From a plasmid: DNA of 64,000 nt. The stretch lies in sequence record CP033547.1; one strand, given 5' to 3'. Position 1 is the stretch's first letter. Each line of letters starts with the position of its first letter. The notes under the pieces were generated by a model. The model ran no database searches. It was not told where the DNA came from and saw only the letters and a list, made by a program, of their open reading frames with translations. The position numbers and the translations under genes were made by a program. Positions 6,702 to 38,187 of this stretch are shown here, in pieces.

Positions 6702-7522
6702 GGCACTGTTGCAAATAGGCTGACATGATAAGCTAAATATCTTATTTATTTCGAGATACAGCAGATGAATCCCTTCCATGGTCGGCACTTTCAAGGTGAA
6801 ATCATTCTTTGGGCTGTTCGTTGGTATTGTAAATATGGCATCAGCTATCGTGAACTTCAAGAAATGCTCGCTGAACGGGGTGTGAATGTTGACCACACCA
6901 CAATTTATCGTTGGGTTCAGCGTTATGCTCCAGAAATGGAAAAACGCTTACGCTGGTATTGGCGTAATCCTACAGATTTACATTCATGGCATATGGATGA
7001 GACTTATATCAAAGTGAAGGGGCGATGGACTTACCTGTATCGTGCAGTTGATCAACGTGGTCATACGATTGACTTTTACCTTTCCGCTAGACGGAACAGT
7101 AAATCAGCCTATTGTTTTTTAGGAAAAATCTTCAATACGGTGAAAAAATGGCAAATTCCACGGGTCATCAATACAGATAAAGCAGCGACCTATGGCCATG
7201 CTTTATCACGGTTAAAGCGAGAAGGAAAATGTCCAGTAGATATTGAGCACAGGCAGATTAAGTATAAAAATAATGTCATTGAATGTGATCATGGTAAGTT
7301 AAAGCGGATCATCAGGGCCACATTAGGATTCAAATCTATGAAGACGGCTTATGCCACAATTAAAGGTATTGAAGTCATGCGTGCACTACGTAAAGGACAA
7401 GCATCGTCATTTTATTATGGTCAGCCTCAAGGTGAAGTGTGTCTAATCAACAGGGTTTTCGGTCTCTAAGCACTTTTAAAAAGGAACTTCATCGACTCAA
7501 ATCTCTATTTGCAACAGTGCCG
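6702..7522 (+). mobile_element. IS1006/IS1008-like IS6-family element (821 bp)
   Basis: Terminal IRs GGCACTGTTGCAAA / TTTGCAACAGTGCC. It interrupts both the IS1202-group copy and the first unit of the tandem array. Confidence 0.8.
6765..7469 (+). CDS. IS6-family transposase (IS1006/IS1008-like), 234 aa
   Basis: About 85% identical to Tnp26, with the characteristic MNPFHGRHFQGEIILWAVRWYCKYG start. Confidence 0.85.
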   Translation: MNPFHGRHFQGEIILWAVRWYCKYGISYRELQEMLAERGVNVDHTTIYRWVQRYAPEMEKRLRWYWRNPTDLHSWHMDETYIKVKGRWTYLYRAVDQRGHTIDFYLSARRNSKSAYCFLGKIFNTVKKWQIPRVINTDKAATYGHALSRLKREGKCPVDIEHRQIKYKNNVIECDHGKLKRIIRATLGFKSMKTAYATIKGIEVMRALRKGQASSFYYGQPQGEVCLINRVFGL

Positions 7523-9966
7523 GAATTTGTCCACTTATTCCAATGATGATGAGAACTGCAGCATTGACTTAGATCGCCAGTGCTCAGTACTGGCCATCAT
7601 GTAGCTTTTATCGCTTTAGCGCCTTAACTTATTTAAGTGGCGTAACTTGCATAACTTATGCATCCTATTTAAGTGATGTAAGTTATAGTATTCCGTGTCA
7701 GGAATCTGTCTACTTATCAGCGTCCGCGGAACTGCAGGATTTCTGGCTTTGTTGTTCGCAACGAGGGCTAATTCTGGAGTTCCGTATAAGGCATAATCAA
7801 TAACGACATCTCGGCTGATAATCAGCGCAGTAACTTTAGCCAATCTCGCTGCAATTTCCATGTCAGGAATTTGTCCACTTATTCCAATGATGATGAGAAC
7901 TGCAGCATTGACTTAGATCGCCAGTGCTCAGTACTGGCCATCATGTAGCTTTTATCGCTTTAGCGCCTTAACTTATTTAAGTGGCGTAACTTGCATAACT
8001 TATGCATCCTATTTAAGTGATGTAAGTTATAGTATTCCGTGTCAGGAATCTGTCTACTTATCAGCGTCCGCGGAACTGCAGGATTTCTGGTTTTGTTGTT
8101 CGCAACGAGGGCTAATTCTGGAGTTCCGTATAAGGCATAATCAATAACGACATCTCGGCTGATAATCAGCGCAGTAACTTTAGCCAATCTCGCTGCAATT
8201 TCCATGTCAGGAATTTGTCCACTTATTCCAATGATGATGAGAACTGCAGCATTGACTTAGATCGCCAGTGCTCAGTACTGGCCATCATGTAGCTTTTATC
8301 GCTTTAGCGCCTTAACTTATTTAAGTGGCGTAACTTGCATAACTTATGCATCCTATTTAAGTGATGTAAGTTATAGTATTCCGTGTCAGGAATCTGTCTA
8401 CTTATCAGCGTCCGCGGAACTGCAGGATTTCTGGCTTTGTTGTTCGCAACGAGGGCTAATTCTGGAGTTCCGTATAAGGCATAATCAATAACGACATCTC
8501 GGCTGATAATCAGCGCAGTAACTTTAGCCAATCTCGCTGCAATTTCCATGTCAGGAATTTGTCCACTTATTCCAATGATGATGAGAACTGCAGCATTGAC
8601 TTAGATCGCCAGTGCTCAGTACTGGCCATCATGTAGCTTTTATCGCTTTAGCGCCTTAACTTATTTAAGTGGCGTAACTTGCATAACTTATGCATCCTAT
8701 TTAAGTGATGTAAGTTATAGTATTCCGTGTCAGGAATCTGTCTACTTATCAGCGTCCGCGGAACTGCAGGATTTCTGGTTTTGTTGTTCGCAACGAGGGC
8801 TAATTCTGGAGTTCCGTATAAGGCATAATCAATAACGACATCTCGGCTGATAATCAGCGCAGTAACTTTAGCCAATCTCGCTGCAATTTCCATGTCAGGA
8901 ATTTGTCCACTTATTCCAATGATGATGAGAACTGCAGCATTGACTTAGATCGCCAGTGCTCAGTACTGGCCATCATGTAGCTTTTATCGCTTTAGCGCCT
9001 TAACTTATTTAAGTGGCGTAACTTGCATAACTTATGCATCCTATTTAAGTGATGTAAGTTATAGTATTCCGTGTCAGGAATCTGTCTACTTATCAGCGTC
9101 CGCGGAACTGCAGGATTTCTGGCTTTGTTGTTCGCAACGAGGGCTAATTCTGGAGTTCCGTATAAGGCATAATCAATAACGACATCTCGGCTGATAATCA
9201 GCGCAGTAACTTTAGCCAATCTCGCTGCAATTTCCATGTCAGGAATTTGTCCACTTATTCCAATGATGATGAGAACTGCAGCATTGACTTAGATCGCCAG
9301 TGCTCAGTACTGGCCATCATGTAGCTTTTATCGCTTTAGCGCCTTAACTTATTTAAGTGGCGTAACTTGCATAACTTATGTATCCTATTTAAGTGATGTA
9401 AGTTATAGTATTCCGTGTCAGGAATCTGTCTACTTATCAGCGTCCGCGGAACTGCAGGATTTCTGGTTTTGTTGTTCGCAACGAGGGCTAATTCTGGAGT
9501 TCCGTATAAGGCATAATCAATAACGACATCTCGGCTGATAATCAGCGCAGTAACTTTAGCCAATCTCGCTGCAATTTCCATGTCAGGAATTTGTCCACTT
9601 ATTCCAATGATGATGAGAACTGCAGCATTGACTTAGATCGCCAGTGCTCAGTACTGGCCATCATGTAGCTTTTATCGCTTTAGCGCCTTAACTTATTTAA
9701 GTGGCGTAACTTGCATAACTTATGCATCCTATTTAAGTGATGTAAGTTATAGTATTCCGTGTCAGGAATCTGTCTACTTATCAGCGTCCGCGGAACTGCA
9801 GGATTTCTGGCTTTGTTGTTCGCAACGAGGGCTAATTCTGGAGTTCCGTATAAGGCATAATCAATAACGACATCTCGGCTGATAATCAGCGCAGTAACTT
9901 TAGCCAATCTCGCTGCAATTTCCATGTCAGGAATTTGTCCACTTATTCCAATGATGATGAGAACTG
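7523..9966. repeat. Tandem array of about 7.1 copies of a 344-bp unit with a strictly alternating C/T polymorphism
   Basis: Period of 344 bp, as seen from the identical 81-aa ORFs at 7616, 7960 ... 9680. The variable base is at 7747+344n (C,T,C,T,C,T,C). There is one further SNP near 9381. The unit contains ATAAGTTAT/AACTTAT-type sub-repeats. Confidence 0.9.
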
Positions 9967-10124
9967 CAGCAATAAATTATAAAGGCAGGATAGGTGGTTA
10001 CTTAACCAGCATAAGTTATGTAACTTATGCTAATTCATATTAAAATCACATGAAAGCAATCTTAATTAAAAACTTAGTATGAGAGGGCGTGGTCTTTTGT
10101 TTAAAGTGACAATTAACTAAAGGG

Positions 10125-11111
10125 TTACTTCTTGTATTTAGGAGCATAACCAACTTCTAACAAATAAGAAAAATACTTTCTAACATTATCGCTATCAAGA
10201 AGATCACTTGATATCCTTTCCTGAAAGTCTTCTAGAGTCTCTCCACGATGTGCGAAATCATTACCAAATTTTGGATAGTTAGTAATATCACATAGCTTTT
10301 TAGCAAAGAATATACATTGCTTAGCTGTCAATTTATAAGTTGGCTCTAAAGGAGCACTTGTACTCGTTTTATTTTGTTCTTTTTCTTCAAACATGAAATG
10401 TAATTCTGAAATATTTCTTCCCTCCTTTTTTTTTTGTATATAAGAAACAGTAATATCCGTAAATTTGTTAATTTGATTTAAAGCTACGGTAAGAACCCTT
10501 TTTTAAAGTCTCCCATCTTTTTATATTCATCTTCTATCAATCCGAGTTTTGATCTAAGCTCATCTATAGAAATATATAACTTACCAGTTGATCTCCAACG
10601 TATGAGTAACTCATACAGGCGAATAGCATAAATGCTTGTAAGTGGTGAGATTTGTTTAAGTTCATATCTTGTGAACTTTTCTTCAAGTTTTACAAATAAG
10701 GGGATAATATCTGGTGCAAAAATTAGTTGGACGCATCCCTCTTCCTTAACATAACCAACTTTTGAAACCCACCTACTTTTTGTATATTCCTATTTTTCCA
10801 GTTATAGGATCTACTGCTTTATAATTCAAATGCCGTTCAAAAAGATTATCACATGCAGATTGTAACGCTTCATAAGATGCTTGACGTCCTAAATTAAACT
10901 GTTTCATGTATTCAGAAGCATGAATCGTAAGTATAGTATCAGAAGTAAGTTCTTTCTCAATTTCTCGAGCAGCAATGATCGCAATTAATATTAGCCTTTG
11001 CTCAGATAGATTTAGTGAATACGATGCTTCAACCAAATTATTATCTTTATATACTATGTTACTCATAGGAAGATATATTAAGGAAAATGTTATAAATAGA
11101 TATATTGACAA
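10125..11111 (-). CDS. rep: Rep_3-family plasmid replication initiator (RepAci-like), frameshifted
   Basis: N-terminal NNLVEASYSLNLSEQRLILIAI motif. C-terminal ORF at 10125..10394. A T10 run at 10426-10435 sits at a frame break. Confidence 0.7.
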
Positions 11112-11145
11112 TACTACTTAACGTCCACAAATGAAAGTATTTTTA

Positions 11146-11275
11146 ATAAAAGAATTTGTCAACTTATGCACAGAATTTGTCAACTTAGAAACAGGAAAAA
11201 GTCAACTTATTGGTAGGAATATGTCAACTCAGAAACAGGAAAAAGTCAACTTATTGGTAGGAATTTGTCAACATA
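11146..11275. promoter_or_regulatory. Iteron region / oriV upstream of rep
   Basis: Direct repeats GAATTTGTCAACTTA x2 and a 41-bp repeat AGAAACAGGAAAAAGTCAACTTATTGGTAGGAAT(A/T)TGTCAAC x2, followed by an AT-rich tract. Confidence 0.7.
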
Positions 11276-11469
11276 TACTTCCTGTATCCCTTTGCTAGTC
11301 AAGCTTTGAGCAGAGATATAAATAATAAATTTAAATAAATATATATAAATTCAAAAAGACCATTCTTTTGTGGATAACTTTTTTTTAATTTTTTTTTTCA
11401 TGATAGTTGATTACTTCATAAATCACCGTTAAATTATACACAAACAAACTTACGTAACTTACATAAATT

Positions 11470-12052
11470 ATGATTATCTTAGTTGGTGGTGAAAAAGGCG
11501 GTGCTGGTAAAAGCTGTTTAGCTCAAAATCTTGCAGTTTACTTACAACAAAGTCAAAGAGACGTCCTCTTATTAGATGCTGACCCTCAAGGAACAACAAC
11601 AGATTGGGTCAAAGAAAGAGATGAAAACGATGAATTAAATAATATTCCATCAGTACAAGCATCAGGGAATATACGTTCAGTTTTAAAAGATTTAGATAAA
11701 AGATACCAAGATATTATCATTGATGCAGGTGGACAGGATTCTGGAAGCATTACGTTCAGCAATGACTATAGCTACACATATGTTATTGCCGTTTAGACCC
11801 AAACGAAGAGATCTAAAAACTTTAGATCATATGGAACAAGTTTTAAAATTAGCAAAGACAGTAAATCCAAATCTGAAAGCTAGAGCAATTATTACTCAGT
11901 GTCCAACTCTTCCTTCTCAAGTTCAAAGAATTTTAGATGCAAAAGAGGCATGCAAATCATTTGGTATTGATGCATTGAATTCAATCACAACAAATCGAAA
12001 TGTTTATGATGATGCAGATGAAAATGGGCTTTCGGTTTTTGGAAGTAAATAG
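11470..12052 (+). CDS. parA: ParA-family partition ATPase, frameshifted near 11750
   Basis: Walker A GGEKGGAGKS. The C-terminal half continues in ORF 11720..12052. Confidence 0.7.
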
Positions 12053-12165
12053 TGATCCTAAAGCGAAAGCTGAAATTGAAAGTATTGCAAGAGAGTTTTT
12101 AGGAGTATAACTATGGCTGGTTTAACTGGGCTAAACAAAAACCTGAACCTACTGAACAAGATAAA

Positions 12166-12399
12166 ATGTTAGATGCATTTATATCTGGTGCAGAAAAGAG
12201 GGTAAAGGCTTTAGAATCAAGTGAAAAAAAATTTATTCGTTACACTTTTTCTCTCAATGAAGATATTAGTAAACTAATTGATGAGCTGGTTGTAAAAGGG
12301 CAAAATGCAAGAATAAATCGTTCAAGTATTGTTCGAGCAGCTATAGAAAATTTATCGACATATAGTGCAGATGAATTAAAAGAAATATTAAATAAATAA
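12166..12399 (+). CDS. Small partition protein (ParG / ribbon-helix-helix-like) downstream of parA
   Basis: 77-aa ORF in parG position, followed by a terminator. Confidence 0.4.
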   Translation: MLDAFISGAEKRVKALESSEKKFIRYTFSLNEDISKLIDELVVKGQNARINRSSIVRAAIENLSTYSADELKEILNK

Positions 12400-12403
12400 A
12401 TTA

Positions 12404-12436
12404 AAAATATCCCACTTTTTTAAGGGGGATATTTTT
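12404..12436 (+). terminator. Rho-independent terminator (aaaatatccc...ggggatatttttt)
   Basis: Inverted repeat plus a T tract. Confidence 0.55.
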
Positions 12437-12644
12437 TATCCAAGCTAAATTTACTGTAAGTCCCCGGTGAACCCTATAGATATTTTTTAAATTCAGCTCA
12501 GGCTCTAGCAGTGTGGTGGTAATTTATCTATTTGAGTTATTTTATATGAAGGCGTCCTTTTCTGCACAGACACGGATCTAGGCTATTCAGCTTGGCTGAC
12601 TGAATTGATGTCATGATGTTTGATGCACATTGTCAAATTCTTTA

Positions 12645-12830
12645 TCAAGCGAAACTCTGAATCAATGCTTGTAATTGTTTCACTATGATGAGTTTGAGTC
12701 CAGTGAAATGTTGCTTGTTCCAACCGTAGAGCTTTTGAATACCCAGTCCATCATATATCAACACTTTCATACAATGACCACGCTTATTCCAAAACAAGAT
12801 AACCTCAATGTTGCGATTTGACATGGTCAA
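12645..12830 (-). pseudogene. IS66-family TnpB-like fragment
   Basis: The VLIYDGLGIQKLYGWNKQHF region resembles the IS66 orf2 KILYWDxNGFCLWxKRLE motif. Confidence 0.25.
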
Positions 12831-13006
12831 AGGCTTTTAGGACATGAGAAAGAGCAGTATAAGTAACTGCTCGCATATCCATGGGCTGAGTAGAAAGCCA
12901 GATTTCATCAATGTGAATCTTATTGTGAGCACCTTGGGGAATTCTGCCAAAGCGATTGCTCCTGATACCTTCCGTTTCAGCCCAATCGCTATGTTCGCAT
13001 CAGGCG

Positions 13007-13350
13007 TCGTTATTGATTATGCCTTATACGGAACTCCAGAATTAGCCCTCGTTGCGAACAACAAAGCAGAAATCCTGCAGTTCCGCGGACGCTGATAAGT
13101 AGACAGATTCCTGACACGGAATACTATAACTTACATCACTTAAATAGGATGCATAAGTTATGCAAGTTACGCCACTTAAATAAGTTAAGGCGCTAAAGCG
13201 ATAAAAGCTACATGATGGCCAGTACTGAGCACTGGCGATCTAAGTCAATGCTGCAGTTCTCATCATCATTGGAATAAGTGGACAAATTCCTGACATGGAA
13301 ATTGCAGCGAGATTGGCTAAAGTTACTGCGCTGATTATCAGCCGAGATAA
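13007..13350. repeat. Single inverted copy of the 344-bp unit, exactly one unit long
   Basis: Reverse complement of the array unit. Differs by a 1-bp indel (aaagcagaaatcc versus aaagccagaaatcc). Confidence 0.85.
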
Positions 13351-13606
13351 AGTAATGTGAACGGGTAGTATTGCTGTAATGGATGGATTAAACGTTGCAG
13401 GGTAAGGCAATGTAATAAATGTGGGCTTTGGTGGTGCAGAGCTTGTTCTCCATCCAAAAGGCGAATATATCTACATACGGGATTTGAATTTAGTACTTAC
13501 TGCAAAGCTACTGGAAGCGAGGGATGTGTTGGGTGCTTTATCGGATGGTTACCTTTAATCCTTCATAAATGAGTGTACTAGTGAACAATACCACTTTATA
13601 GCAGTT

Positions 13607-13660
13607 AAACTTATTAAACTTATTAAACTTATTAAACTTATTAAACTTATTAAACTTAAA
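13607..13660. repeat. Short tandem repeat (TTAAACTTA)x6
   Basis: Direct reading of the sequence. Confidence 0.8.
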
Positions 13661-13866
13661 TTGCTTAGGTGGTCTAACTAAAATTTTGTAGCAGAGTGAT
13701 CTAATAATAAATGTATTAATAGACCATACCCTAAAGTTACAATCTGAAAGTTCATGAAATTATGTATCATTTAAATGATTTTTAATCATAAGTAACATGT
13801 AACTTTAGTGTTAAAGAATTATAATTTACGAAATTGTTCATTTTTATCCAATTGGGGCGTGAAAAA

Positions 13867-14438
13867 GTGAAAGGCCAAAAAGTAGGGTATGTCCGGGTAA
13901 GTTCTGTCGAGCAAAACACTGGACGTCAACTTGAAGGAATTGAGGTCGACCGGATTTTTGTTGACCGTGCTTCCAGGTAAAAATACTGACCGACCTAAAT
14001 TTCAGGAAATGTTGAACTATGTCCGGGAAGGGGACAGGGTGATTGTACATTCAATGGATCGTTTTGCGCGAAGCCTAAAAGATTTGGTCACTGGAAGTAG
14101 ATAAACTGGTCAAACGAGGGATCGCCATCCAGTTTGTAAAAGAAAATATTACTTTTACAGCCGAATCCACCCCGATGGATAATTTGATGCTTCAAATGAT
14201 GGGTGCTTTTGCACAGTTCGAACGTGAGATCATTTTAGAGCGGCAAAAGGAAGGAATAAAACTCGCCTCTGCTCAGGGGAAGTACAAAGGTCGGGTGCAT
14301 AAACTAAAGCCTGACCAAGCTGGAAGCTTTACGACAAGCATGGAAGGAGGGGAAGTATCCATCGAAAATGGCATTAGGGAAAGCTTTTGGGATTAGTCGT
14401 CAGGCGGTATACCGATATTTACAAGTTAGTGAATAGCT
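13867..14438 (+). pseudogene. Serine recombinase / resolvase with multiple frameshifts
   Basis: Reconstructed translation VKGQKVGYVRVSSVEQNTGRQLEG...MDRFARS...QFEREIILERQKEG... with a C-terminal HTH. Broken into three or more frames. Confidence 0.6.
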
Positions 14439-14550
14439 TATTGGGATTAGCAAATCTTTTATGACTTTTACATATATTCTTATTAAAGGAAAACTATTTT
14501 TAATCTTTTAAAATAGTTATAAGATAAACAAAATTTGTTGATTTTATAAC

Positions 14551-15355
14551 ATGAAAATATCATTACTGATCTCATCACTTCCCAGTCAAAGCACAACCGC
14601 AAGAATGCGAATTTGGCGTTCATTAAAGTCAAATGGTGCAGCAACTTTAAGAGATGGTGTTTACCTCTTACCCGAAGCACATTCTGAAAAATTTGAGTCT
14701 GTTGTTCATGATCATCTTAATGAACATGGGCATGCCTATATCTTTCAGACTGAACCTCCTGCACATTTAGACCTTGCTCAACTTTTCGACAGAACTGGAG
14801 AATATGAAGAACTGAGAACTGAAATTTCACAAATACAAAATACGCTTGAGGAAAATAAGAAAAAGAACATCTCAAACAGATTCGAAAATTAAGAAAAACC
14901 TCAATTCACTGATAGAAATAGATTTTTTCCCAAATACTCATCAAAGCAAAACACTGAATGAACTCACCCGATTAGAACAAGTTATTGCCCGGTTAGGTGA
15001 ATACGATGAACCCAATAATTTTGAACAGCAATTAAAAGTCCTATGCAAGCAAGATTTTCAAAATAAAATCTGGGCAACCAGAAAGCGTCCTTGGGTTGAC
15101 CGTTTGGCATCGGCATGGATCATTCAGAAATTTGTAGACCCTCAGGCAAAATTTATTTGGTTAGAGCATCCCAATGATTGCCCCAAAGATACCTTAGGTT
15201 TTGATTTTGATGATGCCCAATTTACCCATATCAATCATCTAGTCACTTTTGAAGTGTTAATGCATAGCTTTGAATTACAAAACCCTGCTTTAAATAAAAT
15301 CGCTGAAATTGTTCATTTTTTAGATGTTGGGGAAATGAGCCTGCCGAAGCCTTAG
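14551..15355 (+). CDS. chrB: ChrB chromate resistance regulator, frameshifted (14551..14892 and 14846..15355)
   Basis: The WATRKRPWVDRLASAWIIQKFVDP motif is characteristic of ChrB. Confidence 0.6.
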
Positions 15356-15470: not shown

Positions 15471-16807
15471 ATGAATAATAAGCCATCTTTAATAGATGAA
15501 ACAGAAATTGAATCTATCAGCTTTTGGCAAGCATTCAAATTTTGGTTAAAACTGGGATTCATTAGCTTTGGTGGTCCTGCCGGGCAAATCGCTGTTATGC
15601 ACCAAGAGTTAGTTGAAGAAAAAAAATGGATTTCAGAACAGCGTTTTATGCACGCATTGAATTATTGCATGCTCTTACCCGGCCCCGAAGCTCAACAACT
15701 TGCAACTTATATTGGCTGGTTAATGCATAAAACCAAAGGTGGCATCGTTGCAGGGGTTTTATTTATTCTACCTTCTCTTTTTATCCTCATTGGGCTGTCT
15801 TGGGTCTATGTGAAATATGGCAACGTCCCGATCATTGCCGGTTTGTTTTATGGCATTAAGCCCGCAGTTGCCGCAATTGTATTTCATGCCACGTATCGTA
15901 TTGGCAGTCGTTCATTAAAGAATAAATTTCTATGGGCGATTGCAGTTATCGCTTTTCTTGCAATATTTATTTTTAATATTCCTTTCCCTTTAATCGTTTT
16001 ATGTGCAGCGATATCGGGTTATTTGGTCGGTAAAAGTATCCTGATTTATTTAAGCTAAATGCACATCAGTCCAGTCAAAAATCCTATGGACGTGCAATTA
16101 TTGATGATGATACCCCTACACCTGAACATGCTGTTTTTAAATGGTCTCATCTGATCAAAATAACTGTAATTTCAGCACTTTTATGGGCAATTCCACTCAT
16201 CTCTTTAACAGCAGTTTTGGGATGGAGTCATTCTTATACTCAACTGGCTTGGTTCTTTACTAAAGCTGCACTTCTGACATTTGGTGGTGCTTATGCTGTT
16301 CTGCCTTACGTTTATCAAGGCGCTGTCGGTTTTTATCACTGGCTCACCCCAACTCAAATGATCGATGGTTTAGCCCTAGGTGAAAGTACTCCCGGCCCAT
16401 TGATCATGGTGGTGGCTTTTGTCGGCTTCTTAGCAGCTTATAACCATTCGCTGTTGGGTGCTGAATATCAATTTATTGCAGGTGCATTAGGTGCAATCAT
16501 CGTCACGTGGTTTACTTTTATTTTCTCATTTTTCTTTATCTTAGCCGGAGCACCTGTTATAGAGTCCACACACAATCAAATTAAATTTACTGCCCCTTTA
16601 ACCGCCATTACCGCTGCCGTGGTGGGCGTAATTTTAAATTTGGCACTCTTTTTATGTTACCACGTGCTTTGGCCACAGGGTTTTGAAGGGAATTTTGATT
16701 ATATCTCTGCCATTATTGCAATTTTAGCTGTAGTCGCATTATTTAAATTTAATCAAAGTGTGCTCAGAGTCATCATCGGTTCTGCTTTTAGTGGGTTTAA
16801 CGATTAA
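15471..16807 (+). CDS. chrA: ChrA chromate efflux transporter, with a frameshift around 16040-16080
   Basis: Two CHR-family halves (FGGPAGQIAVMHQELVEEKKW; TFGGAYAVLPYVYQG). The linker is readable in a third frame. Confidence 0.7.
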
Positions 16808-20393: not shown

Positions 20394-21878
20394 TGTTATT
20401 CCCAAGTAGAAATGTCCTACCTAATAACCAAATAGAAATGTCCTATATGGACATTTCCAAGTCAAGCACAGGATTTAGATTTCGTTGTTCAATCGCTGTT
20501 TTCTGTGCTTGTCTACGTGGCATCTTTTGAGAACGATTGCGTTTGTTTTGGTGTTCCAGTTGTTCATGCTGTTGTTGAATATGTGCCAGCACAGAACCCA
20601 AACGTTTATTCTCAACGATCTCTCGCTGGTTGAGCTGACTTAATTTATCAAAGATGCTGTAATTGATTTTTCTTCCCTGATATTCAATGGCTACAGTACC
20701 ATCCGGATATTCCAAGGAACTCAAGATACTTGCCGCCCAATCTTTGATTTTCTTCGCTGTTTTCCAAGATATATACGCATTTATCATAAGTAATCGTCAA
20801 GCTGTTCGTGACCCTGCGGGGTTCACGCCAGGTAAAAACATCATCTAATTCTTCGGCTGTTTCAGCGATAGGCCGATGTAGATCCTTGGAATTAAAAGCC
20901 ATCTTGGCGAATTTACGATTAAATTGCTCAATAAAAGCACGGCAGCCACTTATTGGCATCTGCAATTGAACTGATGCCTTCTAGACGCATCTCCTTAATC
21001 AGACGATCCTGAAGTGTTCTATTCGCTCGTTCTACACGACCTTTGGCTTGAGGGGAGTTAGCGAAAATGATATCGATATTGAGAGTGCTCAGAACACGTC
21101 CAAACTGGGTAATCTTGGTGTCTTTCTTGCTACTTTGATTCACCCTAAAAACTGAATGTTTGTCACTGTAAAATGCCAATGGCTTACCATGCTGTTCGAT
21201 ATATAAACGTGTCGAAATCATATAGTCAAAGGCTGACTCTGACGCACAGAAGCGTAAATGCTGCAATTTTCCTGTGGCATCATCGATGAATACTAGCAGA
21301 CAGCATTTAGGTGCTCGACCTTCAAACCAATCATGGTGTGAGCCATCAATTTGGATCAATTCACCATAACAATCTCGGTTATAACGAGGCTGATATGGTC
21401 GTTTCAGGCGCTTGCAGCGAGGGATCCATAAATCGGCTGCAATCATCCAAGGAACGCAGGGTTTCTACTGAAAGATCGAATCCATGCACGGTGGTGAGCT
21501 TTTCATGCGCTAAAGTGGGTCCGAAACCATAAAGTTGATCTGAAACAATATTGAGACACTTAAGTCTGAGTTCTTCAGGAAGTTTAGAATTGCTGATTTG
21601 GCCACGACCGGCATGGGCTAATGCAGCGGGACCTTGAGCTTTGTATTTCTGCAGTAAGCGTCTGATGTGACGTTCTGAGATATGAAGTAGCTGAGCAGCC
21701 TGGGATTGAGTTATACGTTGATCACAGATTTCTTGCAAGACCGACAATCGTTTAAGTTCTTTATCCGACATAGACACCAACATATCAAACCGTCCGCTAA
21801 GGAAATTGCAAAAGCGCATATTCTAAAAGCGGACATTTTTACTTTGGAGAAACCGGACATTTCTATTTTGGGCTTACA
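20394..21878 (-). mobile_element. IS1202-group (ISNCY, ISAjo2-like) IS, 1485 bp, inserted 5 bp from the XerC arm of a pdif site
   Basis: Imperfect IRs TGTAAGCCCAAAATAGAAATGTCC / TGTTATTCCCAAGTAGAAATGTCC. The transposase is split over four ORFs (20443..21819). Confidence 0.8.
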
Positions 21879-36703: not shown

Positions 36704-38187
36704 TGTTATTCCCAAGTAGAAATGTCCTACCTAATAACCAAATAGAAATGTCCTATATGGACATTTCCAAGTCAAGCACAGGATTTAGATTTCGTTGTTC
36801 AATCGCTGTTTTCTGTGCTTGTCTACGTGGCATCTTTTGAGAACGATTGCGTTTGTTTTGGTGTTCCAGTTGTTCATGCTGTTGTTGAATATGTGCCAGC
36901 ACAGAACCCAAACGTTTATTCTCAACGATCTCTCGCTGGTTGAGCTGACTTAATTTATCAAAGATGCTGTAATTGATTTTTCTTCCCTGATATTCAATGG
37001 CTACAGTACCATCCGGATATTCCAAGGAACTCAAGATACTTGCCGCCCAATCTTTGATTTTTCTTCGCTGTTTTCCAAGATATATACGCATTTATCATAA
37101 GTAATCGTCAAGCTGTTCGTGACCCTGCGGGGTTCACGCCAGGTAAAAACATCATCTAATTCTTCGGCTGTTTCAGCGATAGGCCGATGTAGATCCTTGG
37201 AATTAAAAGCCATCTTGGCGAATTTACGATTAAATTGCTCAATAAAGCACGGCAGCCACTTATTGGCATCTGCAATTGAACTGATGCCTTCTAGACGCAT
37301 CTCCTTAATCAGACGATCCTGAAGTGTTCTATTCGCTCGTTCTACACGACCTTTGGCTTGAGGGGAGTTAGCGAAAATGATATCGATATTGAGAGTGCTC
37401 AGAACACGTCCAAACTGGGTAATCTTGGTGTCTTTCTTGCTACTTTGATTCACCCTAAAAACTGAATGTTTGTCACTGTAAAATGCCAATGGCTTACCAT
37501 GCTGTTCGATATATAAACGTGTCGAAATCATATAGTCAAAGGCTGACTCTGACGCACAGAAGCGTAAATGCTGCAATTTTCCTGTGGCATCATCGATGAA
37601 TACTAGCAGACAGCATTTAGGTGCTCGACCTTCAAACCAATCATGGTGTGAGCCATCAATTTGGATCAATTCACCATAACAATCTCGGTTATAACGAGGC
37701 TGATATGGTCGTTTCAGGCGCTTGCAGCGAGGGATCCATAAATCGGCTGCAATCATCCAGGAACGCAGGGTTTCTACTGAAAGATCGAATCCATGCACGG
37801 TGGTGAGCTTTTCATGCGCTAAAGTGGGTCCGAAACCATAAAGTTGATCTGAAACAATATTGAGACACTTAAGTCTGAGTTCTTCAGGAAGTTTAGAATT
37901 GCTGATTTGGCCACGACCGGCATGGGCTAATGCAGCGGGACCTTGAGCTTTGTATTTCTGCAGTAAGCGTCTGATGTGACGTTCTGAGATATGAAGTAGC
38001 TGAGCAGCCTGGGATTGAGTTATACGTTGATCACAGATTTCTTGCAAGACCGACAATCGTTTAAGTTCTTTATCCGACATAGACACCAACATATCAAACC
38101 GTCCGCTAAGGAAATTGCAAAAGCGCATATTCTAAAAGCGGACATTTTTACTTTGGAGAAACCGGACATTTCTATTTTGGGCTTACA
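36704..38187 (-). mobile_element. IS1202-group (ISAjo2-like) IS, best-preserved copy, inserted about 6 bp from the XerC arm of a pdif site
   Basis: Transposase largely intact (365-aa ORF 37031..38128 plus 112-aa ORF 36753..37091). Same IRs as the other copies. Confidence 0.85.

Follow-up and report, generated by a model that had tools for sequence, protein, structure and literature searches.

A 344-bp tandem array beside repM in an Acinetobacter plasmid: probable auxiliary iterons interleaved with a second, partition-type motif

The window analysed here, a stretch of 64,000 nt from a plasmid (sequence record CP033547.1), carries a tandem array of 344-bp units next to repM, the gene for its Rep_3 replication initiator. 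Each unit contains homologues of the plasmid's own origin iterons together with a cluster of TAACTTA-type heptads, and we favour, with a probability of about 0.6, the interpretation that the array is a set of auxiliary RepM iterons interleaved with a second protein-binding motif, which would act in cis to control copy number, incompatibility and segregation. The array itself is real and family-wide: the iteron and heptad module lies downstream of rep in every sequenced RepM branch. Among the options raised in an initial annotation of the window was an amplified array of binding sites serving partition, incompatibility or handcuffing, and this is the option favoured by our data, as the repeats copy the repM origin iterons and the heptads match a motif adjoining parA.

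The array repeats carry the origin-iteron sequence

Tandem Repeats Finder described positions 7522-9971 as a single tandem array (period 344, 7.1 copies, 99% matches, zero indels, score 4872), and a repeat search of the window returned seven in-register 344-bp copies with identities of 100/100/100/100/100/99/100%, bearing out the near-identical units beside the Rep_3 gene that had been noted before. When phased on an inverted solo copy of the unit located on the other side of repM, the array comprises six full units flanked by partial ones, of 100 bp at the rep-proximal and 286 bp at the distal end; only two positions vary in a unit-by-unit comparison. It begins ~150 bp past the repM stop codon, i.e., outside the minimal origin and adjoining rep, and it is not the origin itself, because the DnaA box, the AT-rich tract and the contiguous iterons all sit across rep. 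The relevant features are:

7522..9971, plus strand: array, 7.1 x 344 bp, with 15 iteron-like sites, all oriented as the origin iterons; rep-distal end cut by an insertion sequence (IS)
7691..7717, plus strand: 27-bp repeat of type a, TTCCGTGTCAGGAATCTGTCTACTTAT; core with 2 mismatches, cores at 7700 + 344n (n = 0-6)
7856..7882, plus strand: 27-bp repeat of type b, TTCCATGTCAGGAATTTGTCCACTTAT; core AGGAATTTGTCCACTTAT, 1 mismatch to the origin consensus
7521 (cut by the IS), 7865, 8209, 8553, 8897, 9241, 9585 and 9929, plus strand: type b cores, every 344 bp
7625..7685, both orientations: heptad cluster of TAACTTA / TAAGTTA / CACTTAA variants in the X segment, every 344 bp
10008..10031, no strand assigned: perfect heptad palindrome, AGCATAAGTTA TG TAACTTATGCT, between the repM stop and the array
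10125..11066, minus strand: repM, Rep_3 initiator with Rep3_N and Rep3_C domains; frame broken in the window, intact in relatives (WP_002046604.1)
11150..11280, plus strand: origin iterons, six contiguous 22-bp repeats with core GAATTTGTCAACTTA, directly upstream of repM
11368..11378, plus strand: DnaA-box-like TTGTGGATAAC, followed by a T-rich tract; kept in all RepM relatives and marking the origin side

The two 27-bp direct repeats of each unit are spaced alternately by segments termed X (152 bp) and Y (138 bp). The 19-bp direct repeats described in the initial annotation do exist, though as parts of these longer repeats, which are homologues of the origin iterons. Indeed, the origin consensus AGGAATTTGTCAACTTAT matched the 64-kb window 23 times with ≤3 mismatches (0.14 expected), namely 15 times in the array, six times at the origin and twice in the solo unit, with no match elsewhere in the window. 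The array repeats thus carry the sequence of the cognate origin iterons, as an auxiliary iteron locus should, and the same holds in the relatives described below. The heptad TAACTTA, in turn, occurs 41 times in the window (14.6 expected) and is concentrated in 7.6-13.7 kb. Palindromic sub-repeats had been seen in the unit previously and are present; what had been missed is that the direct repeats copy the repM origin iterons and that the palindromic elements are the heptads also adjoining parA.

Array and origin iterons differ in a systematic manner. In every lineage, a central triplet made up of purines and a full-length CCTGACA tail mark the auxiliary iterons (GAC-RRA-TYCCTGACA), whereas the central triplet of the origin iterons is mostly NTT and their tails are more degenerate (all RepM loci, L005-L027 and L037; in the window, 11150-11280 versus 7522-9971). 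To judge by sequence, one initiator seems to have two classes of site. The stretch from the iterons to rep contains, moreover, the TGGAC half of the iteron as an inverted repeat, perfect in an Acinetobacter radioresistens relative and imperfect in the window. Rep-dimer operators of other Rep_3 replicons have this appearance, and the inverted repeat suggests that Rep reads the GGAC part of the iteron rather than the heptads.

The iteron and heptad module recurs among RepM relatives

The plasmid is of type R3-T28 in the scheme of PMC9927589, corresponding to GR34 in the terminology quoted in PMC9455709. The 344-bp unit, for which the initial annotation had proposed a search of Acinetobacter plasmids, is found in 99 plasmid records, all from Acinetobacter, at 1-20 places per record. 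In intact plasmids of the same type, the array lies between the hipBA/alkaline-phosphatase region and repM and is longer than that of the window. The number of iteron-like sites varies widely among same-type plasmids:

pAS70-2: 34 iteron-like sites
pACI-55cf: 26 iteron-like sites
pAURM-1: 24 iteron-like sites
two other plasmids: 20 iteron-like sites each
pApW20-2: 5 iteron-like sites
pNDM-32: 3 iteron-like sites (this may be a collapsed assembly)

RepM relatives were then compared using one genome per species (24 loci, 100-71% identity). Long-period repeats or pairs directly past the rep stop are general among them, from 91% down to 71% identity, with periods of 173/289/321 (91% RepM), 157, 164, 164/328, 138, 183 and 192 bp. 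The units follow a common plan, in which a 22-bp match to the plasmid's own iterons (e.g., ATATATGGACAGATTCCTGACA) is followed by 3-6 AACTT/AAGTT motifs at ~8-10 bp spacing. The spacers after the iteron and motif cluster are unrelated between lineages, the units being anchored on the iteron, and all that the 138-192-bp units have in common is the iteron plus the heptad cluster. Within the 13-21-kb loci, GACNNNT[TC]CCT (8-base core) matches almost only the origin iterons and the downstream sites. In its minimal form, seen in the more distantly related A. radioresistens replicon (ParB-like protein 56% identical), the arrangement is reduced to two downstream iterons 175 bp apart, the first of which is followed by a heptad cluster, TAAGTTATGTAACTTATTAAACTTATG. 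Within 90 nt 3′ of auxiliary iterons, AACTT/AAGTT occurs 130 times versus 20.6 expected, with an excess in 11 of 12 loci, although copies within an array are not independent.

Within-array identity ranges from 99-100% in the lineage of the window to 72-90% in other lineages; the arrays are therefore old and unequally homogenised. An alternative that needs to be weighed against this background is neutral repetitive DNA, i.e., that one or two ancestral regulatory iterons seeded unequal crossing-over and that array length merely drifts. The range of 3 to 34 sites among near-identical plasmids would fit this idea, as would near-identical copies that point to recent amplification and a minimal relative with two sites only. 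However, the same two-motif module occupies the same place in independent lineages with unrelated spacers, and in the several lineages whose copies have diverged to 72-90%, iteron and heptads remain constant. Since the motifs stay intact in diverged arrays and the module has been built or kept in separate lineages, purifying selection on the motifs, not drift, is indicated, and we regard the neutral explanation as improbable.

The heptads match a motif of the par operon

On the origin side of repM lies a putative partition operon with heptads of its own:

11441..11469, plus strand: heptads AAACTTACGTAACTTACATAA, adjoining the parA start codon in the whole family; putative operator or centromere-type site
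11470..12110, plus strand: parA, small Walker-type ATPase, 212 aa in relatives; frame broken in the window by assembly indels
12113..12399, plus strand: parB-like gene, 95 aa in relatives (WP_000908082.1); sub-threshold ribbon-helix-helix similarity
13605..13658, plus strand: (TTAAACTTA)x6, 9-bp tandem of the heptad core downstream of parB; 5-9 copies in relatives

The origin side, parA and the gene for the 95-99-aa protein are conserved in all relatives, and heptads always adjoin the parA start. Iterated short motifs beside a small-ParA operon, which also form its operator, are a hallmark of type Ib centromeres and are seen here in the heptads at the parA start and in the 9-bp tandem downstream of parB. 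The ParB-like protein has an invariant segment, KKFxRCTFSLN, followed by two helices; this pattern resembles that of ribbon-helix-helix proteins, and the protein is a candidate centromere-binding protein. As to the 9-bp tandem, (TTAAACTTA)n has six copies in the window, seven in CP026086.2 and L005, five in the plasmid of Acinetobacter sp. PK01 and nine in A. ursingii DSM 16037. In A. gerneri, a comparable 9-bp array, (AACTTACTT)x5, stands beside an auxiliary iteron (L024, 11579-11620).

These heptads raise the question of whether the array is chiefly a partition centromere, its heptads coated by the ParB-like protein and segregated by ParA, with little contribution from the iteron-like sequences. 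Heptads of the same core adjoin parA in all relatives, form the 9-bp tandem downstream of parB and are present in every array unit of all lineages; tandem centromeres of variable number are also known, such as F sopC with 12 x 43 bp. Yet it is the 22-bp iteron and not the heptads that is the best conserved element of the unit across lineages, the Y half-unit has an iteron but lacks a heptad cluster, positions 13605-13658 already hold a dedicated heptad array, and both fold and DNA target of the ParB-like protein are putative. We therefore consider a primarily centromeric array, the main rival of our preferred interpretation, possible but doubtful.

Several observations also weigh against our preferred interpretation of the array as auxiliary iterons with an interleaved partition motif. 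Half of each unit, the 138-bp Y segment, is devoid of the heptad cluster. At 165-179 bp, the iterons are much further apart than the roughly 20-40 bp seen classically in P1 incA and F incC, and with an RRA triplet in place of the mostly NTT triplet of the origin, Rep might bind the auxiliary sites differently or more weakly. Plasmids with as few as three (pNDM-32) or five (pApW20-2) sites exist, which shows that many sites are not required, and the variation in copy number could in large part be neutral. With regard to the ParB-like protein, its matches to the Pfam families RHH_1 (E = 1e-3, 19.5 bits, cut-off 20.5) and RHH_3 (E = 0.01-0.04) are below threshold. Its AlphaFold2 model, a coil-helix-helix, reached a pLDDT of 69.4 (monomer only, from a 23-sequence alignment; such proteins are obligate dimers), a Foldseek search of this monomer model against the PDB gave no match at E ≤ 0.001, and phmmer and hmmsearch runs of the protein against PDB sequences returned nothing relevant. 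The proposed link between this protein and the heptads is based on heptad position only, and all functional statements made here are inferences from sequence.

A proposed mode of action

If the array consists of auxiliary iterons, RepM monomers bound to its sites would titrate the initiator, and array iterons might pair with origin iterons by handcuffing or looping, either in cis or between plasmid copies. By analogy to P1 incA, F incC and Vibrio cholerae ori2-inc, titration and pairing would together limit initiation, resulting in low copy number and incompatibility. The heptad clusters might recruit the small ParB-like protein, in which case the array would double as, or reinforce, the partition centromere; partition proteins may in turn modulate Rep binding, similar to the competition between ParB and initiator described for Vibrio. 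Unit number would shift by unequal recombination or slippage, in steps of 344 or 688 bp between units and of 165/179 bp between 27-bp repeats. Such recombination would at the same time homogenise the copies and turn the number of sites into an easily changed variable.

A bolder version, to which we give much less credence, is that of a combined organelle for replication control and partition, with RepM on iterons and the ParB-like protein on heptads joined in one higher-order complex that serves as centromere as well as handcuffing the origin, and with array length as a fast-evolving 'rheostat' adjustable in 165/179/344/688-bp steps. Were this true, changes in length would reset copy number and incompatibility, which could make it easier for GR34 plasmids to live alongside relatives, or to form cointegrates with them, as they spread NDM-1 and OXA-58. 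The array would then be a bacterial counterpart of the logic of the Epstein-Barr virus (EBV) family of repeats (FR) or the 2-micron STB locus, and the NTT iterons of the origin and the RRA iterons of the array would represent activating and inhibitory binding modes, like the 12-mers and 39-mers of Vibrio.

Relation to known systems

Auxiliary iterons are a classical concept, and an array of this kind is in that sense already known. Iterons downstream of rep occur in P1 incA (nine iterons), F incC (five iterons) and as the downstream repeats of RepFIB (for such auxiliary or regulatory iterons see, e.g., Chattoraj 2000, cited in PMC7315799). The array shares with them copies of the origin iterons outside the minimal origin and on the far side of rep, giving the layout origin iterons - rep - extra iterons, and by analogy the expected roles would be titration, handcuffing, copy-number control and incompatibility. 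Unlike these loci, it is a long-period tandem with up to 34 sites whose number varies among near-identical plasmids, it has a second motif cluster in every repeat, the central triplet of its iterons differs from that of the origin iterons, and it is known from sequence alone. Four features are unusual, namely the long-period tandem organisation with 165-179-bp spacing, the high (up to 34) and variable number of sites, the obligatory pairing with a partition-type motif and the two iteron classes.

Type Ib centromeres consist of short motifs bound by small dimeric proteins, as in pB171 parC1/parC2, TP228 parH and the omega heptads of pSM19035, and F sopC is a tandem centromere. Common features with the plasmid studied here are a small ParA with a ~95-aa protein and direct or inverted heptads, variable in number, upstream of parA, downstream of parB and in the array. 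By contrast, the heptad clusters are here interleaved with initiator sites and situated beyond rep, and the binding protein is a candidate only. Repeat families for segregation are also known from EBV oriP, whose FR holds sites for EBNA1 (which is the initiator as well), and from the yeast 2-micron STB, on which Rep1/Rep2 act. As an analogy only, both resemble the array in being a separate tandem family of maintenance-protein sites beside the true origin; they differ in that proteins and hosts are unrelated and that a role of RepM in segregation would be hypothetical.

A precedent for interleaved replication-control and partition sites is ori2-inc of V. cholerae chromosome 2, which has regulatory iterons and 39-mers with an adjacent parS2, where extra initiator sites titrate and handcuff the initiator and a partition protein at or beside these sites modulates initiator binding (reviewed in PMC6090056). 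There, as here, the extra initiator sites adjoin the origin. The initiator, however, is of the Rep_3 type here and RctB in Vibrio, the ParB proteins are of different types, and a homogenised tandem contrasts with the few unique sites of Vibrio; ori2-inc is experimentally established, whereas the present array is known as a sequence.

In the literature covered by full-text searches and targeted reading, we found no description of the array and no study of replication control in GR34/R3-T28 plasmids; the paper defining GR34 (Liu, Moran et al. 2021) was outside this coverage and may mention the array. In many Acinetobacter species, blaNDM-1, blaOXA-58 and further resistance genes reside on GR34/R3-T28 plasmids. 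If the array sets copy number and incompatibility, it would govern gene dosage, stability and which plasmids coexist or fuse, and would be an obvious target for curing or for incompatibility-based displacement. Since auxiliary sites vary naturally from 3 to 34, are spaced at nucleosome-like distances, and occur together with two iteron classes and interleaved partition-type motifs, titration versus handcuffing, as well as crosstalk between replication and partition, would also be directly amenable to testing.

Sequence variation and truncation of the array

Two variable positions and one flanking IS characterise the array of the window:

7747 (+344n), plus strand: hypervariable site; odd-numbered units (1, 3, 5, 7) have C, even-numbered ones (2, 4, 6; at 8091, 8779, 9467) have T
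9381, plus strand: extra single-nucleotide polymorphism (SNP) in unit 6, T for C; variant also in CP102936.1 and CP102764.1
6692..7521, plus strand: IS6-family element, IS1008-like, with transposase at 6765-7469; it terminates at 7521 in the right inverted repeat ...TTTGCAACAGTGCC, truncating the array

The C,T,C,T,C,T,C alternation reported in the initial annotation (G,A,G,A,G,A,G when read in the orientation of the solo unit) was reproduced, and so was the additional SNP near 9381. Strict alternation is likewise seen in an independent record, CP033537.1 (nine units), while CP102936.1 and CP102764.1 (eight units each) show G A G A G A G G in solo orientation. Because the alternation and the 9381-type SNP are found in other records, they represent inherited haplotypes and not noise; the alternating site also falls outside the assembly-error contexts described below. 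CP026086.2, CP059478.1 and CP027249.2 share the IS junction of the window, yet have C in every unit, possibly due to homogenisation by short-read polishing. Most likely, then, the 688-bp higher-order repeat is real and limited to the IS1008-truncated sublineage. The earlier suggestion of very recent dimer amplification is too narrow, the alternation marking a 688-bp repeat in one sublineage and the array as such being old and family-wide. At the hypervariable position, three alleles occur in solo orientation (GCC, ACC and GC), alternating strictly in one sublineage and irregularly in others; in intact same-type plasmids, a GC/GCC indel is found there in irregular order. The sister plasmid in PK01 has units of ~94% identity in orders such as X-X-X-Y, and recombination must therefore occur between the 27-bp repeats themselves.

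The IS had been thought to be inserted into the first unit. Instead, the IS1008-like element adjoins and cuts the rep-distal end of the array, which reaches 17 units in intact relatives. Even in such 'intact' arrays, the rep-distal end meets a relic of an IS6-family inverted repeat (GGCACTGTTGGAAATATAG) within an X segment (L001, reverse complement, ~15190-15210; L004, ~15520-15560), implying that the longest arrays, too, were anciently truncated.

Assembly quality and non-regulatory explanations

The assembly of the window is error-prone. Compared to CP026086.2, it has ~20 single-base indels in ~9 kb, located at homopolymers or, for five of the six non-homopolymer cases, at CTGAAG/CTTCAG; these five one-base insertions map to 11743, 13513, 13973, 14093 and 14322, and another one at 12041 lies in TTGAAG. 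The CTGAAG insertions look like nanopore-type systematic error at a methylated motif, which suggests that the host methylates CTGAAG. Given these indels, the broken frames of repM, parA, the parB-like gene and a resolvase gene are artefacts.

Error of this sort, together with an 81-aa open reading frame (ORF) in each unit, might invite the view that the array is an assembly artefact, as the initial annotation had allowed, or else a repeated protein-coding or RNA gene. Both are scarcely credible. Plasmids pOXA58_005069 (CP026086.2) and p17-84_OXA (CP059478.1) match the IS-array-repM segment without a break at 99.9% and have the same 7.1 copies; independent records sharing the array at the same copy number argue against assembly expansion, as do the arrays in 99 plasmids. 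The 81-aa ORFs, already suspected not to be genes, lack a Pfam match, are frameshifted by the GC allele of the common GC/GCC indel in many copies, and are absent from the units of relatives, whose spacers are unrelated. A structured RNA was dismissed after an Rfam search over 7000-14500 gave no match at E ≤ 1, and a promoter or terminator array because promoter-like sequences (21 versus 22 expected) and terminators (3 versus 3.8 expected) are not enriched. In GC-allele arrays (L032, L033, L035 and L036), RefSeq assigns each unit a 47-aa 'hypothetical protein' (WP_153565456.1); these calls inside the repeat are almost certainly spurious.

Draft contigs with repM relatives very often stop 200-1000 bp past the rep stop (L006, L007, L008, L010, L013, L015-L018 and L023), consistent with collapsed repeats or with downstream arrays breaking short-read assemblies. 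In practice, the array thus interrupts such assemblies just past repM, and polishing can collapse or homogenise its units.

The solo unit stems from one historical event

The inverted copy of the unit lies beyond the parB-like gene:

13006..13348, minus strand: solo unit, 343 bp, with two iteron-like sites at 13095-13112 and 13274-13291

Its arms are 100% complementary over 286 nt, and the 1-bp indel that had been noted is a deletion at the hypervariable site of the array. This indel is real, since many other plasmids have an identical 343-bp form; at this site, the solo unit has the GC allele in most records and GCC in pA297-3 and in pA of A. junii SC22. Alignment with the PK01 plasmid (L004, NZ_CP094644.1) revealed an empty site, ...TTCGCATCAGGC|AAAGTAATGTGAA..., which in the window is occupied by precisely one inserted unit, circularly permuted with its break at ...CAGCCGAGAT|GTCGTTATTG.... 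The filled-site junctions read ...CATCAGGC|GTCGTT... (13005/13006) and ...GAGAT|AAAGTAATG... (13348/13349), while PK01 is uninterrupted as ...CATCAGGC|AAAGTAATG.... Alignment of the filled with the empty site showed neither a target duplication nor terminal inverted repeats nor a shared core. In the 100%-RepM lineage, every member is filled (343 or 344 bp) at this same site, including the parB-solo fragment of pA297-3-type plasmids, and the solo unit therefore goes back to one historical event. The pA297-3-type copy was considered as an independent insertion and rejected, as it lies in a captured parB-solo fragment of the same backbone. As a best guess, a circle of 344 bp was excised from the array and integrated illegitimately, the alternative being precise loss in PK01. 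The solo unit adds two inverted iterons on the par side of the replicon.

That the solo copy is exactly one permuted unit, at a site empty in PK01, is also what would be expected if the unit were a small mobile element (resembling a miniature inverted-repeat transposable element (MITE), or a circle) that was amplified in tandem and transposed once. The initial annotation had proposed a satellite-like or discrete element with defined ends; the single-unit nature of the copy agrees with this, yet one shared event devoid of duplication or inverted repeats lends it weak support. The unit junction and the target share no core, there is a single solo site, and all 99 records have the unit in the repM/par context or in a fragment thereof. 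An IS, MITE or transposon end was rejected as a reading of the unit on the same grounds. We thus deem mobility of the unit very unlikely, and the insertion does not make it a mobile element. As a candidate pdif module, GTTCCGTATAA-GGCATA-ATCAATAACGA was discarded: with 9/11 matches in the XerC arm and 3/11 in the XerD arm, it amounts to an XerC-like half-site and not a 28-bp two-arm site. One such half-site is present per unit, and the unit junction does not fall within its central region.

Between the parB-like gene and the solo unit, a 61-aa ORF (12645-12830, minus strand), also present in PK01, weakly resembles IS66 Orf2/TnpB, with a sub-threshold match (E = 0.023), and is perhaps a remnant of IS66; this would not account for the solo insertion. 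Elsewhere in the window, identical short tandem-repeat calls at 21511-21871 and 37820-38180, 16,309 bp apart, indicate two copies of one element, probably an IS.

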